Positions 1 through 61,255 of a stretch of 64,000 bases of DNA are shown piece by piece. Below the pieces are notes generated by a model. The model saw nothing but the letters and a program-made list of their open reading frames with translations. It ran no database searches and was not told the DNA's origin. The translations under genes were made by a program, and so were the position numbers. The stretch's first letter is position 1; each line of letters opens with the position of its first letter. The stretch lies in NCBI RefSeq assembly GCF_013315695.1, contig NZ_CP054353.1. One strand, 5' to 3'. This stretch comes from Escherichia coli. Lineage in GTDB: Bacteria > Pseudomonadota > Gammaproteobacteria > Enterobacterales > Enterobacteriaceae.

Positions 1-1
1 T

Positions 2-1474
<1,473 letters not shown>

Positions 1475-1524
1475 TATTTTTACAGCCAGCCGCTAACTTC
1501 CTGCTGGCTGTAAAATTATCCTCT

Positions 1525-2127
1525 TCAGGAGGAGATATTTAACATCATTGCCGCCTGGGTGCGATTTTTCACTTCCAGACGGCGATACAGGGATTCCAGA
1601 TGCGCTTTTACCGTTCCGGTACTGATATTCAGCGCCCTGCCGATCTCCTTATTTGATTCGCCCGCCGCTAACATGGTTAAAATCTCCCGCTGGCGGGCGC
1701 TTAACGATTTGAGATCTTTAATGTCCTTTTCCGGCGTCGTTCGCCAGTCTCCCGGCAGAAACATCATCCCCATCGCCGCACTATTTACCGCCAACGCAAA
1801 TGTCTCGACGGTTGAATCACGAGGCACAATGGCCAGCACATTAAAATGGATAACCTCCTGTAACCACCGTTTATTGCAATCCGTCGCCGTAATTAACACC
1901 TTAACCTCAGGAAACTGCACCACGGTTTTTTGCAGCAACCAGTAGCAAAACTCACCATCCTGATCGCCATCGAGCATCACTAAGGCTTCAGGGTAACTTT
2001 CCAGCTTTTGCCATAACTCGTCTGCCTGACCGGCCCCCTGAATACTCACTCCTGGAATACGCTGCTGTAAACTGATTTTCATTCCATGAATAAATATTGA
2101 CTGCCTGTCAAACATGACTATTTGCAT
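1525..2127 (-). CDS. yhjB: LuxR/FixJ-type response-regulator-like transcription factor
   Basis: 200-aa ORF with C-terminal LuxR helix-turn-helix (…EIGRALNISTGTVKAHL…); K-12 gene order. Confidence 0.85.
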   Translation of the reverse strand: MQIVMFDRQSIFIHGMKISLQQRIPGVSIQGAGQADELWQKLESYPEALVMLDGDQDGEFCYWLLQKTVVQFPEVKVLITATDCNKRWLQEVIHFNVLAIVPRDSTVETFALAVNSAAMGMMFLPGDWRTTPEKDIKDLKSLSARQREILTMLAAGESNKEIGRALNISTGTVKAHLESLYRRLEVKNRTQAAMMLNISS

Positions 2128-2645
2128 AACTGAATCTCCACCTGAATACGTTAAAAAGACTTAAGTAGTGGAAGGGTATTACCCGCGAGAAAAAATAAGA
2201 ATTCGCCATTTGGCGGTGGCCATTCTACAGAGATGACGCGTAGAAAATAGTTACCGATATAAATAGTTACAGCTAAACGCCTGAAATTACATGTCGAGTG
2301 CACTATTTAAAACAATTTTGAGGATTTCCTTATATTGATGGTTAGTACGCATGCAATTAAAAATGAAACTCCGCGACCACAAGCAAAAATAACAAATGGC
2401 AATGAGACAAAAATAAGCACAAATAGCCAACACGTCCTCTGTTCACTTTAAAGGGAATCGCTGAAAAAAACGCTCTGTTTAGGGAAATTCACCTTTCTCA
2501 TAAAGCTATTCCGCCCTTTTCCTGCTGAGAAATCGCCACATTCGTCATGACAACATTGTGAAACCCGGCATTAGATGTTAGAAAAAACAAGGTGATGCTG
2601 CCAACTTACTGATTTAGTGTATGATGGTGTTTTTGAGGTGCTCCA

Positions 2646-2921
2646 GTGGCTTCTGTTTCTATCAGCTGTCCCTCCTGTTCAGCTACTGACGGGGTGGTGC
2701 GTAACGGCAAAAGCACCGCCGGACATCAGCGCTATCTCTGCTCTCACTGCCGTAAAACATGGCAACTGCAGTTCACTTACACCGCTTCTCAACCCGGTAC
2801 GCACCAGAAAATCATTGATATGGCCATGAATGGCGTTGGATGCCGGGCAACAGCCCGCATTATGGGCGTTGGCCTCAACACGATTTTACGTCACTTAAAA
2901 AACTCAGGCCGCAGTCGGTAA
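2646..2921 (+). CDS. insA: IS1 InsA
   Basis: 91-aa [25 protein letters not shown]… identical in all three IS1 copies. Confidence 0.9.
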
Positions 2922-3343
2922 CCTCGCGCATACAGCCGGGCAGTGACGTCATCGTCTGCGCGGAAATGGACGAACAGTGGGGCTATGTCGGGGCTAAATC
3001 GCGCCAGCGCTGGCTGTTTTACGCGTATGACAGGCTCCGGAAGACGGTTGTTGCGCACGTATTCGGTGAACGCACTATGGCGACGCTGGGGCGTCTTATG
3101 AGCCTGCTGTCACCCTTTGACGTGGTGATATGGATGACGGATGGCTGGCCGCTGTATGAATCCCGCCTGAAGGGAAAGCTGCACGTAATCAGCAAGCGAT
3201 ATACGCAGCGAATTGAGCGGCATAACCTGAATCTGAGGCAGCACCTGGCACGGCTGGGACGGAAGTCGCTGTCGTTCTCAAAATCGGTGGAGCTGCATGA
3301 CAAAGTCATCGGGCATTATCTGAACATAAAACACTATCAATAA
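2840..3343 (+). CDS. insB: IS1 InsB (expressed as InsAB' by -1 frameshift)
   Basis: 167-aa ORF overlapping insA in the -1 frame. Confidence 0.9.
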
Positions 3344-3423
3344 GTTGGAGTCATTACCAAAAAACAATAAACAATGCGATATGCGCGCTACTGTTTCGCT
3401 GTGAACAACAATCGGTCAAAGAA

Positions 3424-4323
3424 ATGGATAAAATTCACGCAATGCAGTTGTTCATCAAAGTCGCTGAGCTGGAAAGTTTTTCCCGCGCAGCGGATTTCTT
3501 TGCTTTGCCAAAGGGAAGTGTTTCGCGCCAGATACAGGCACTGGAACATCAACTTGGCACCCAGCTTCTCCAGCGCACCACGCGGCGGGTCAAACTCACG
3601 CCAGAAGGCATGACCTATTATCAACGGGCAAAAGATGTGTTGAGTAATCTCAACGAACTGGACGGTCTGTTTCAACAGGATGCCACCAGTATCAGCGGTA
3701 AATTACGCATCGACATCCCGCCAGGAATCGCGAAAAGCCTGTTACTGCCGCGCCTGTCGGAATTTCTCTATCTGCATCCGGGAATTGAGCTGGAGCTGAG
3801 TAGCCATGACCGTCCGGTAGATATTCTTCACGATGGTTTTGATTGCGTGATACGCACTGGCGCGTTACCGGAAGATGGCGTTATCGCCCGTCCCCTCGGC
3901 AAACTGACCGTGGTCAATTGTGCCAGTCCACACTATCTGACGCGCTTTGGTTATCCTCAAAGCCCCGACGATCTGACTTCGCACGCAATAGTGCGTTACA
4001 CACCGCACCTGGGTGTACATCCGTTAGGTTTTGAGGTTGCCAGCGTTAATGGCGTCCAGTGGTTTAAGTCTGGCGGCATGTTGACGGTAAACAGTCGCGA
4101 AAACTATCTCGCCGCCGGTCTTGCCGGTCTGGGGATTATTCAGATCCCGCGCATTGCCGTGCGCGAAGCCCTGCGTGCCGGGCGGCTTATTGAAGTGTTG
4201 CCTGGCTACCGTGCCGAGCCGCTGTCCCTTTCACTGGTTTATCCGCAGCGTCGGGAGCTTTCCCGGCGTGTAAACCTGTTTATGCAGTGGCTGGCTGGCG
4301 TAATGAAAGAGTACCTGGACTGA
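3424..4323 (+). CDS. yhjC: LysR-family transcriptional regulator
   Basis: 299-aa ORF with N-terminal LysR HTH (MQLFIKVAELESFSRAADFF…); start 65 bp from the IS1 end. Confidence 0.85.
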   Translation: MDKIHAMQLFIKVAELESFSRAADFFALPKGSVSRQIQALEHQLGTQLLQRTTRRVKLTPEGMTYYQRAKDVLSNLNELDGLFQQDATSISGKLRIDIPPGIAKSLLLPRLSEFLYLHPGIELELSSHDRPVDILHDGFDCVIRTGALPEDGVIARPLGKLTVVNCASPHYLTRFGYPQSPDDLTSHAIVRYTPHLGVHPLGFEVASVNGVQWFKSGGMLTVNSRENYLAAGLAGLGIIQIPRIAVREALRAGRLIEVLPGYRAEPLSLSLVYPQRRELSRRVNLFMQWLAGVMKEYLD

Positions 4324-4371
4324 CCGACTATACTTTTTAAGAATGACCACGACAGAAGGACAAAAGAGCGG

Positions 4372-5385
4372 ATGACGCAGGAAAACGAGATCAAACGTCC
4401 CACCCAGGATCTGGAGCACGAGCCGATTAAGCAGTTGGATAATAGCGAGAAAGGCGGCAAAGTTAGCCAGGCGCTGGAAACCGTCACCACTACTGCCGAG
4501 AAAGTCCAACGCCAACCGGTTATTGCGCACCTGATTCGCGCGACAGAACGCTTTAACGATCGGCTGGGTAACCAGTTTGGTGCGGCTATCACCTATTTCT
4601 CATTTTTGTCGATGATCCCGATTTTGATGGTGTCGTTTGCCGCAGGGGGCTTTGTGCTGGCCTCCCATCCGATGTTGCTACAGGATATCTTCGACAAAAT
4701 TCTGCAAAACATCAGCGATCCGACGCTAGCCGCCACGTTGAAAAACACCATCAACACCGCCGTTCAGCAGCGTACGACTGTAGGGCTTGTCGGCCTGGCG
4801 GTGGCACTTTATTCCGGCATCAACTGGATGGGTAACCTGCGTGAAGCGATTCGTGCCCAGTCGCGCGATGTCTGGGAACGCTCGCCGCAAGATCAGGAGA
4901 AGTTCTGGGTAAAATATCTGCGTGATTTTATTTCGCTGATTGGTTTGTTGATTGCGCTGATTGTGACGCTTTCTATCACCTCGGTTGCCGGTTCTGCGCA
5001 GCAAATGATTATTAGCGCCCTGCACCTGAACAGCATTGAGTGGCTGAAACCGACGTGGCGGTTGATTGGCCTGGCGATTTCCATCTTCGCCAACTATCTG
5101 CTTTTCTTCTGGATCTTCTGGCGGTTACCGCGCCACCGTCCGCGCAAAAAAGCCCTGATTCGCGGAACATTTCTGGCTGCTATTGGTTTTGAAGTGATTA
5201 AAATTGTGATGACTTACACCCTGCCATCGCTGATGAAATCCCCCTCTGGCGCAGCATTTGGTTCCGTGCTGGGGCTGATGGCATTTTTCTACTTCTTCGC
5301 CCGTTTGACGCTGTTTTGCGCGGCGTGGATTGCCACCGCCGAATATAAAGACGACCCGCGAATGCCGGGGAAAACGCAGCGGTAA
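4372..5385 (+). CDS. yhjD: Inner-membrane protein YhjD
   Basis: 337-aa multi-pass membrane ORF; K-12 synteny. Confidence 0.8.
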   Translation: MTQENEIKRPTQDLEHEPIKQLDNSEKGGKVSQALETVTTTAEKVQRQPVIAHLIRATERFNDRLGNQFGAAITYFSFLSMIPILMVSFAAGGFVLASHPMLLQDIFDKILQNISDPTLAATLKNTINTAVQQRTTVGLVGLAVALYSGINWMGNLREAIRAQSRDVWERSPQDQEKFWVKYLRDFISLIGLLIALIVTLSITSVAGSAQQMIISALHLNSIEWLKPTWRLIGLAISIFANYLLFFWIFWRLPRHRPRKKALIRGTFLAAIGFEVIKIVMTYTLPSLMKSPSGAAFGSVLGLMAFFYFFARLTLFCAAWIATAEYKDDPRMPGKTQR

Positions 5386-5776
5386 TTCATTGGTTTATAA
5401 TGCCTGATAAACGCACGGTCGATCCCCTCGCCCCTTCGGGGAGAGGATTAGGGTGAGGGGGTACAAGCCAGCCAGAGACCAGGCAATGACATGCACATAA
5501 CCACCTGAAACTACATCTCTTCAGGAGCAAACAATTTCATTCCAACTCATAACCCCAGCATATAAATCCAGTTGGTAACTTTTATTTAACCTGAAACCAG
5601 TTTTATCCACTATTTATAAAATTATGTGAAGCATTTCATAGAAGAAAAATCACTGGCCTAAACATTATCCCCTTTTTGCCTGGTTTTTGACCATTTCCGC
5701 GATTTGTTACACATTGAAATATCACTTTTGCTGTGCGTAATATGGCTATTCGTTAGCCAAAAAATAAGAAAAGATT

Positions 5777-7099
5777 ATGCAAGCAACAGCCACAACACTC
5801 GACCACGAGCAAGAATACACGCCGATCAACTCGCGTAATAAAGTCCTTGTCGCCTCTCTCATTGGCACGGCCATTGAGTTCTTCGACTTTTATATTTACG
5901 CCACTGCGGCCGTTATTGTGTTTCCGCATATCTTCTTCCCGCAGGGTGATCCTACGGCAGCAACGCTACAGTCGCTTGCCACCTTCGCCATCGCCTTCGT
6001 CGCGCGCCCCATTGGCTCTGCCGTTTTTGGTCATTTTGGCGATCGCGTTGGGCGTAAAGCGACGCTGGTCGCCTCGTTGCTAACGATGGGGATTTCGACC
6101 GTGGTGATTGGTCTGCTGCCGGGCTATGCCACGATTGGTATTTTCGCCCCGCTGCTGCTGGCGCTGGCTCGATTTGGTCAGGGTCTGGGTTTAGGCGGCG
6201 AATGGGGCGGAGCGGCTCTGCTGGCGACTGAAAACGCCCCACCGCGCAAACGTGCACTGTATGGCTCCTTCCCGCAGCTGGGCGCACCGATTGGCTTCTT
6301 CTTTGCCAACGGCACTTTCTTACTGCTTTCCTGGCTACTGACCGACGAGCAGTTTATGAGCTGGGGCTGGCGCGTGCCGTTTATCTTCTCGGCGGTGCTG
6401 GTCATTATCGGCCTGTATGTTCGCGTGTCGCTGCATGAGTCGCCGGTGTTTGAGAAAGTCGCTAAAGCGAAAAAACAGGTGAAGATCCCGCTGGGTACGC
6501 TGCTGACCAAACATGTTCGCGTAACCGTACTGGGTACGTTCATTATGCTGGCAACCTATACGCTGTTTTACATCATGACGGTCTACTCTATGACCTTTAG
6601 TACCGCCGCCGCGCCAGTTGGGCTTGGCCTGCCGCGTAACGAAGTATTGTGGATGCTGATGATGGCAGTGATTGGTTTTGGCGTGATGGTGCCAGTCGCC
6701 GGATTACTGGCTGATGCCTTTGGTCGCCGTAAAAGCATGGTAATCATCACCACGCTGATCATCCTGTTCGCGCTGTTCGCCTTTAACCCTCTGCTCGGTT
6801 CTGGCAACCCGATTCTGGTTTTTGCCTTCCTGCTGCTGGGGTTAAGTCTGATGGGACTGACCTTCGGGCCGATGGGCGCGCTGTTACCAGAGCTGTTCCC
6901 GACAGAAGTGCGTTACACCGGAGCATCGTTCTCTTACAACGTAGCGTCGATTCTCGGGGCTTCCGTTGCGCCGTATATCGCAGCCTGGTTGCAGACTAAC
7001 TACGGGTTAGGTGCGGTGGGGTTATATCTGGCGGCGATGGCTGGCTTGACGTTAATCGCCCTGCTGCTGACCCATGAGACACGACATCAGTCGTTGTAA
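5777..7099 (+). CDS. yhjE: MFS transporter
   Basis: 440-aa ORF with MFS signature GHFGDRVGRK; synteny. Confidence 0.85.
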   Translation: MQATATTLDHEQEYTPINSRNKVLVASLIGTAIEFFDFYIYATAAVIVFPHIFFPQGDPTAATLQSLATFAIAFVARPIGSAVFGHFGDRVGRKATLVASLLTMGISTVVIGLLPGYATIGIFAPLLLALARFGQGLGLGGEWGGAALLATENAPPRKRALYGSFPQLGAPIGFFFANGTFLLLSWLLTDEQFMSWGWRVPFIFSAVLVIIGLYVRVSLHESPVFEKVAKAKKQVKIPLGTLLTKHVRVTVLGTFIMLATYTLFYIMTVYSMTFSTAAAPVGLGLPRNEVLWMLMMAVIGFGVMVPVAGLLADAFGRRKSMVIITTLIILFALFAFNPLLGSGNPILVFAFLLLGLSLMGLTFGPMGALLPELFPTEVRYTGASFSYNVASILGASVAPYIAAWLQTNYGLGAVGLYLAAMAGLTLIALLLTHETRHQSL

Positions 7100-33252: not shown

Positions 33253-33612
33253 TCTCCAGCAACCAATGCCACCAGGGATTAAGCCCCCGCAACATTGCGC
33301 CTCACCGGAACCTTTCCGGCTTGCCGCTGATTCTACGATTGCTTTTTACCGTCAGCACCCGGCAATCTTCCTCATTGCGTGATGCATTCCAGCTTAATTT
33401 CTTTATTTGCAATAGTTGCAGTTCATATCCGGGCTGACTCCAGACTGGTAGTGAAATGCGCAATTTTGTAGAATTGCGCCTCCTCGCGACCTCCCCAGTG
33501 AATCTGTTGCCTCATTTTTTACATACTGCGTATTCGACTTCTCCACCTGTTGCGCAAGAGAAACTGGGTTTATTCATTTTTGCGAGGCCGACTTCTTTCT
33601 GGACAGGACTTT

Positions 33613-60487: not shown

Positions 60488-60502
60488 GGTAATGACTCCA
60501 AC

Positions 60503-61006
60503 TTATTGATAGTGTTTTATGTTCAGATAATGCCCGATGACTTTGTCATGCAGCTCCACCGATTTTGAGAACGACAGCGACTTCCGTCCCAGCCGTGCCA
60601 GGTGCTGCCTCAGATTCAGGTTATGCCGCTCAATTCGCTGCGTATATCGCTTGCTGATTACGTGCAGCTTTCCCTTCAGGCGGGATTCATACAGCGGCCA
60701 GCCATCCGTCATCCATATCACCACGTCAAAGGGTGACAGCAGGCTCATAAGACGCCCCAGCGTCGCCATAGTGCGTTCACCGAATACGTGCGCAACAACC
60801 GTCTTCCGGAGCCTGTCATACGCGTAAAACAGCCAGCGCTGGCGCGATTTAGCCCCGACATAGCCCCACTGTTCGTCCATTTCCGCGCAGACGATGACGT
60901 CACTGCCCGGCTGTATGCGCGAGGTTACCGACTGCGGCCTGAGTTTTTTAAGTGACGTAAAATCGTGTTGAGGCCAACGCCCATAATGCGGGCTGTTGCC
61001 CGGCAT
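60503..61006 (-). CDS. insB: IS1 InsB
   Basis: Identical 167-aa ORF. Confidence 0.9.
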
Positions 61007-61200
61007 CCAACGCCATTCATGGCCATATCAATGATTTTCTGGTGCGTACCGGGTTGAGAAGCGGTGTAAGTGAACTGCAGTTGCCATGTTTTACGGCAGT
61101 GAGAGCAGAGATAGCGCTGATGTCCGGCGGTGCTTTTGCCGTTACGCACCACCCCGTCAGTAGCTGAACAGGAGGGACAGCTGATAGAAACAGAAGCCAC
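60925..61200 (-). CDS. insA: IS1 InsA
   Basis: Identical 91-aa ORF. Confidence 0.9.
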
Positions 61201-61255
61201 TGGAGCACCTCAAAAACACCATCATACACTAAATCAGTAAGTTGGCAGCATCACC

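Follow-up and report, generated by a model that had tools for sequence, protein, structure and literature searches.

The stretch of E. coli DNA analyzed here, 64,000 nucleotides long and hereafter called the window, carries a copy of IS1 (IS1 copy 1) between the divergent regulator genes yhjB and rcdB (yhjC). Positions 1-6000 of the window also contain the 3' part of treF, yhjD, and yhjE, and the gene names match those given by RefSeq on an identical locus. The features of the intergenic region, of the element, and of the two neighboring genes are the following:

1525-2127, minus strand: yhjB, intact gene for a LuxR/GerE-type regulator of 200 aa (Pfam GerE, 3.3e-22; RefSeq)
2128-2581: AT-rich part of the native intergenic region left beside yhjB and parted from rcdB (463 of 519 bp, including the left repeat)
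2582-2590: target-site duplication, left copy, 9-bp direct repeat AAAAAACAA, present as a single copy in IS-free genomes
2591-3358, plus strand: IS1 copy 1, 768 bp
2591-2613, plus strand: left inverted repeat (IRL) of IS1 copy 1, 23 bp, opening with GGTGATGCTGCCAACTTACTGAT, on the yhjB side
2598-2625, plus strand: promoter-like CTGCCA-16-TATGAT found by consensus scan, overlapping IRL
2646-2921, plus strand: insA, 91 aa with a GTG start, repressor/DNA-binding protein (Pfam Zn_ribbon_InsA, 1.3e-21; HTH_Tnp_IS1, 4.7e-31)
2646-3343, plus strand: InsAB' transposase coding region, 232 aa after a -1 frameshift, with the insB' frame open from 2840
2897-2903, plus strand: A6C site (AAAAAAC) for programmed -1 frameshifting, seen in the sequence and annotated by RefSeq as 'programmed frameshift'
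3336-3358, plus strand: right inverted repeat (IRR) of IS1 copy 1, closing with ATCAATAAGTTGGAGTCATTACC, on the rcdB side, with an outward TTGGAG hexamer
3359-3367: target-site duplication, right copy, 9-bp direct repeat AAAAAACAA
3368-3423, plus strand: the 56 bp of native DNA still attached upstream of rcdB
3424-4323, plus strand: rcdB (yhjC), intact gene for a LysR-family regulator of 299 aa (Pfam HTH_1 and LysR_substrate; WP_001572053.1)

According to published work, RcdB (YhjC) acts positively on csgD in E. coli K-12 (PMC7654740; PMC9068703; PMC12388358) and activates virF in Shigella flexneri (PMC8218686). csgD is the curli master regulator. The protein accessions of both rcdB and yhjB are the same as in IS-free relatives, and WP_001572053.1 is also that of RcdB in strain MS 21-1. 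Two intact genes with identical proteins would be expected if the event is very recent or if function has been retained, and they are no demonstration of silencing.

IS1 is the archetype of bacterial insertion sequences, and the ends of copy 1 are those of its family, i.e., imperfect repeats of about 23 bp (GGTGATGCTGCCAACTTACTGAT and GGTAATGACTCCAACTTATTGAT) bordering an element of about 768 bp. When 2591-2613 was compared with the reverse complement of 3336-3358, 18 of the 23 positions matched as inverted repeats. The direct target repeat of 8-9 bp that is characteristic of the family was found as AAAAAACAA on either side, in line with the duplication size expected for IS1 (PMC12428005). This 9-mer occurs only twice on the plus strand of the window, both times abutting IS1 copy 1, and from the intergenic composition its chance at a fixed place is about 6.5e-5. 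The element has the same orientation as rcdB, and 65 nt lie between its last base (3358) and the rcdB ATG (3424), which is also the RefSeq start. The native yhjB-rcdB intergenic region measures 519 bp and has 38.7% GC, against 51.7% for the whole window, and the target within it is an A-tract.

To reconstruct the empty site, the flanks were joined with one copy of AAAAAACAA into a query of 933 nt, which was searched in 5,426 complete E. coli genomes. It was found as one uninterrupted piece at 100% identity in NZ_CP146670.1 (MS 21-1), NZ_OZ546925.1, and NZ_OZ546911.1, and at 95-100% identity in essentially all the remaining genomes. The single AAAAAACAA of the IS-free genomes lies at 2092-2100 of the IS-free reference locus (L021). 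Because the IS-free allele is contiguous and 100% identical elsewhere, the event was a simple transposition with target-site duplication; moreover, the flanks in the window showed 0 mismatches to MS 21-1 across 3.9 kb, so the filled and the empty allele differ by the IS1 and 9 bp only, and the insertion must therefore be very recent. The original prediction had described this element, from the window alone, as a simple IS1 insertion with an intact 9-bp duplication in the yhjB-yhjC divergent intergenic region, ending 65 nt before the yhjC start and parting that gene from most of its upstream DNA, and it had called for comparison with an IS-free intergenic region. Its coordinates and the distance to yhjC turned out to be exact, the comparison gave the contiguous empty allele with flanks identical to those of MS 21-1, and the element has displaced 463 of the 519 bp from the gene by 777 bp. 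The prediction also raised the possibility of IS1-derived read-out or silencing acting on yhjC and yhjB, to which the sequence lends limited support.

The filled site was searched in the same 5,426 genomes with a junction query of 1,368 nt, which was required to match in one piece at 100% identity. Exact insertion junctions were present in two of them, MSB1_4I (rectal swab, Australia) and AF3 (blood culture, UK), each of which contains at least 40 matching IS1 pieces. Although multicopy IS1 can mislead short-read assemblies, nothing was found to support an assembly artefact or a chance repeat in place of a genuine insertion: the window shares its junctions with two complete genomes, one from Australia and one from the UK, that were assembled independently, and the target duplication is exact, as is the reconstructed empty site, which leaves such an artefact a practically negligible probability. 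In MSB1_4I and AF3, RefSeq already annotates the element beside rcdB as 'IS1-like element IS1A family transposase'. The insertion is thus already on public record, with its annotation, in two complete genomes, and it is an ordinary case of IS1. The window is collinear with MSB1_4I over positions 1-60487, with 13 mismatches. Since divergence begins only after 60487, the window comes from a third strain, nearly identical to MSB1_4I and AF3, and the insertion marks a narrow E. coli lineage made up of MSB1_4I, AF3, and the window's strain. Recency and narrow lineage both follow from the junctions in two of 5,426 genomes, the identity of the three IS1 copies of the window, and the lack of flank substitutions relative to MS 21-1.

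Next to the structural evidence, the coding content of the element was compared with that of known IS1. Copy 1 is identical to IS1A of K-12 MG1655 at 767 of 768 bases, and the sole difference, at position 444 (T in K-12, G here), changes Ser to Arg in InsB'. The coding organization of the IS1 family was found in full, with insA, insB' in the -1 frame, and the A6C site (PF03811, PF12759, PF03400); the insB' frame matched Pfam DDE_Tnp_IS1 at 2.3e-78, and the fused InsAB' scored 245 bits against NCBIfam NF033558 transpos_IS1, for which the cut-off is 100 bits. The A6C frameshift motif of IS1 has been described, and the weak IS1 promoter has been placed at IRL (PMC12428005). The three IS1 copies of the window are 100% identical to each other. 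With intact open reading frames and inverted repeats, and three identical copies within 64 kb, copy 1 is intact and presumably transposition-competent. In K-12, only IS1 copies of the IS1A/IS1E consensus type added significantly to transposition (PMC12428005).

The other two copies of the window lie far from the yhjB-rcdB region:

27050-27817, minus strand: IS1 copy 2, 100% identical to copy 1, without target duplication
60488-61255, minus strand: IS1 copy 3, 100% identical to copy 1, without target duplication

The original prediction had contrasted the clean duplication of copy 1 with these two, and the contrast held, since neither has a target duplication and IS1-adjacent deletions account for both, as is typical of such events. 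Copy 2 replaces 637 bp of the MS 21-1 sequence, which cover the 5' parts of bcsR and bcsE and the entire divergent intergenic region between these genes. In this lineage, the operons for cellulose synthesis have probably lost their promoters. Copy 3 is the element that interrupts xylG in MSB1_4I and AF3. In the window it abuts yiaB, so that a segment of about 4.7 kb present in those two genomes (the remaining 5' part of xylG, with xylF, xylA, xylB, and the yiaB start) is absent, and the window's strain is probably unable to use xylose. An exchange of target duplications between copies 2 and 3, by recombination or as a composite transposon, was also considered and rejected, as no flank 9-mers matched and the configuration is one of adjacent deletions instead.

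Several further observations were made along the window. In MSB1_4I, xylG is interrupted by ISEc45 as well, and bisC is annotated as frameshifted. A copy of IS150 adjoins hokA at about 53400-54800 of the window (192515-193884 of the MSB1_4I record); with three IS1 copies, IS150, and ISEc45, this 64-kb stretch is unusually rich in insertion sequences. At 31013-33347, a 483-bp unit is repeated in tandem 4.8 times with 97% identity, and the annotation of MSB1_4I places five genes for type I toxins of the Ldr family in this array. Of the 13 mismatches to MSB1_4I, 12 fall within the ldr array, clustered at 32695-32930, and the other is at 52328; the cluster suggests gene conversion or assembly differences.

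The insertion leaves little native DNA in front of rcdB, and the distribution of promoter-like sites was therefore analyzed with a sigma-70 consensus scan that counts matches out of 12 (at least 8 of 12 in a relaxed scan of the IS-free region). In the native intergenic region, plus-strand sigma-70-like sites with at least 8 of 12 matches were confined to 2128-2581, at distances of 190-420 bp upstream of the insertion, and in the relaxed scan no such plus-strand site was detected in the retained 56 bp (3368-3423). The region contains 3 promoter-like sites, no more than shuffled sequence would give (1.9 ± 1.2). Since all the rcdB-facing sites are upstream of the insertion, the most likely outcome would be reduced or deregulated transcription of rcdB. 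That this gene has been separated from its own promoter and operators, with lower or deregulated expression as the result, is a tentative reading of the site distribution, to which we give slightly less than an even chance. The start codon of yhjB is 463 bp away from the element, and this gene is probably little affected.

Because the literature mentioning yhjC gave no transcription start for rcdB or yhjB, the placement of the rcdB promoter rests on weak consensus matches. A literature search likewise returned no paper joining IS1 with yhjC. In Salmonella, a SoxS marbox has been reported in the yhjB<>yhjC region (PMC10268841); it was tried as a promoter landmark and set aside, as the E. coli intergenic region contained no counterpart at up to 3 mismatches. 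A search of positions 1400-4500, covering the intergenic region and both junctions, against Rfam gave no match to an RNA gene at E-values up to 1.

Promoters of LysR-family genes are often weak and match the consensus poorly, and since they so often deviate from it, the rcdB promoter could lie inside the retained 56 bp. The insertion would then have no regulatory effect, either for this reason or because rcdB is independent of the displaced DNA, with the yhjB promoter located near its own start. Such neutrality would agree with the intact rcdB and yhjB genes, with proteins identical to those of IS-free relatives, with the persistence of the allele in no fewer than three isolates, collected on two continents, and with the unchanged transcription of ugd in ST131 despite an upstream IS1 (PMC8764528). 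The retained segment speaks against it, however, both through the lack of a plus-strand site with at least 8 of 12 matches in 3368-3423 and through its size, as a promoter, a leader, and a ribosome-binding site would hardly fit into 56 bp. We thus consider a neutral insertion rather unlikely, and loss of the native control of rcdB stays the preferred regulatory reading.

The element could also activate a neighbor, through a hybrid promoter at IRL directed toward yhjB, through read-out from IS1 into rcdB, or through disruption of silencing of the H-NS type, as at bgl. The outward -35 boxes of IS1 can form hybrid promoters, though only where they are suitably positioned (PMC8764528; PMC9330008, Table 1). 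Such a promoter would need a good -10 hexamer in the flank at a spacing of 16-18 nt, and a candidate site was found across the left junction:

2575-2604, minus strand: junction-spanning hybrid site toward yhjB, with -35 TTGGCA in IRL, an 18-nt spacer, and -10 TAACAT in the flank (9 of 12; pattern match only)

Besides this site, the AT-rich nature of the intergenic region would favor activation, as would the bgl precedent, in which IS1 and IS5 activate by inserting upstream (PMC11043490). On the other hand, the 18-nt spacer is suboptimal and about 440 nt separate the site from the yhjB ATG; the best hybrid toward rcdB on the IRR side, TTGGAG-17-TAAACA, has a -10 without the conserved final T and reaches only 6 of 12 by manual count, below the threshold of the scan; and the count of promoter-like sites is no higher than expected from shuffling. 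Activation of a neighbor is accordingly judged improbable. With respect to read-out, no plus-strand intrinsic terminator was predicted between insB' and rcdB, and weak read-through from IS1 into rcdB is therefore possible. At the right junction, another pattern match and only that, TTGGTA-16-GATAGT with 8 of 12 matches, runs on the minus strand from 3355-3360 into IRR, antisense to insB'.

To learn how often IS1 enters this region, chimeric queries with IS1 in either orientation were searched in the 5,426 genomes, and 20 IS1 copies from representative loci were mapped to IS-free coordinates between treF and yhjD. With both orientations searched, 32 + 7 genomes carried IS1 in or near the yhjB-rcdB region. 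The 519-bp intergenic region contained seven distinct simple insertions, each with its own duplication of 8-9 bp, and further copies were found around it (coordinates of reference L021):

1673-81, minus strand: simple intergenic insertion
1792-99, minus strand: simple intergenic insertion
1832-40, plus strand: simple intergenic insertion
1851-59, minus strand: simple intergenic insertion
1962-70, plus strand: simple intergenic insertion, five genomes
2025-32, minus strand: simple intergenic insertion
2092-2100, plus strand: simple intergenic insertion, the window's own
4 configurations in 5 genomes: intergenic IS1 associated with a deletion and without duplication
2 sites, one common to 13 genomes: IS1 within yhjB
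2 sites: IS1 within rcdB
1 site: IS1 within yhjD
3 sites: IS1 at the treF/yhjB 3' ends

The window's site is used by no other mapped insertion and is the nearest of all to the rcdB start. Most of the simple intergenic insertions occur in single genomes; three are in the plus and four in the minus orientation, with no bias, and their positions are scattered. This lack of preference in orientation and position also argues against activation of a neighbor. In the 2.3-kb treF-yhjD region of other genomes, several IS1 derivatives have lost 430-600 bp, comprising yhjB and intergenic sequence, by IS1-adjacent deletion.

IS1 favors AT-rich target DNA. About 17 genomes had an intergenic IS1 end where about 7 were expected, a rough comparison, as the density used (at least 12 IS1 places per genome) is an undercount and the genomes are phylogenetically non-independent. 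The recurrence could mean that positive selection has made the intergenic region a hot spot for IS1, where insertions tune RcdB and, jointly with the deletion of the bcsR-bcsE promoters, lower the biofilm matrix. The seven simple insertions and the four deletion-associated configurations (5 genomes) among 5,426 genomes would fit such selection, as would the loss of 637 bp from the divergent bcs promoters at copy 2 of the same window and the reported role of RcdB as a positive regulator of csgD (PMC9068703; PMC12388358). However, the excess is only 2-3-fold, which is no more than expected from the preference of IS1 for AT-rich and intergenic DNA combined with purifying selection within genes; the insertions are, moreover, scattered in position and orientation and mostly restricted to one genome each. 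A selected hot spot was for these reasons set aside as very unlikely. The bolder proposal that the IS1 events at two matrix control points of an IS1-expanded clinical lineage, 56 bp upstream of rcdB and at the 637-bp bcsR-bcsE deletion, are selected, convergent steps toward less curli and cellulose, with the repeated hits in other lineages reflecting the same pressure, appears very unlikely indeed.

Collectively, the locus is very probably best explained by the recent transposition of an intact IS1A-type IS1 into the AT-rich yhjB-rcdB region of one IS1-rich lineage, as an ordinary by-product of IS1 expansion and with no specialized regulatory device. The element entered the A-tract in a lineage whose genomes have at least 40 matching IS1 pieces each, and the usual staggered cut followed by repair duplicated 9 bp of the target. 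The insertion left 56 bp of native DNA before rcdB and shifted the other 463 bp away by 777 bp. If the insertion has parted rcdB from its native promoter and operators, as the scan suggests, the gene would then be transcribed mainly by weak, InsA-repressed read-through from the IRL promoter. The polarity of IS1, attributed in the classical literature to Rho-dependent or internal termination, would cut this read-through further.

Should rcdB expression indeed change, it would be one more regulator rewired by IS1 and would involve no new mechanism. The value of the finding is mainly in strain-level annotation and, beyond that, small. The lineage and MS 21-1 nevertheless form a natural filled/empty pair with identical flanks, which is suited to locating the rcdB promoter and to testing RcdB-dependent regulation of csgD.

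Three sets of known IS1 elements can be compared with this insertion. The closest is IS1A of K-12, which shares with copy 1 the length of 768 bp, IRL and IRR, insA, the insB' frame, the A6C site, and a 9-bp duplication, and differs from it in one base and in its chromosomal location. K-12 itself presumably has no IS1 between yhjB and yhjC. The IS1 sites of K-12 are listed in PMC12428005. The second set consists of the other natural insertions in the treF-yhjB-rcdB-yhjD region, which belong to the same family, have an AT-rich target, and mostly show duplications of 8-10 bp, as does copy 1; they represent several IS1 variants, 93-100% identical to copy 1, in both orientations and at different sites. 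The third set is that of IS1 insertions known to alter transcription, i.e., those at bla TEM-1 and acrEF, those at afaA, osmB, and ugd in ST131, and that at bgl. In ST131, IS1 upstream of genes left afaA up, osmB down, and ugd unchanged, and the outcome depends on a good hybrid promoter (PMC8764528). Like these elements, copy 1 is promoter-proximal and has an outward -35-like hexamer at each end; unlike them, it offers rcdB a poor hybrid promoter (6 of 12), and no selection, by antibiotics or β-glucosides for example, is known to act on this insertion.
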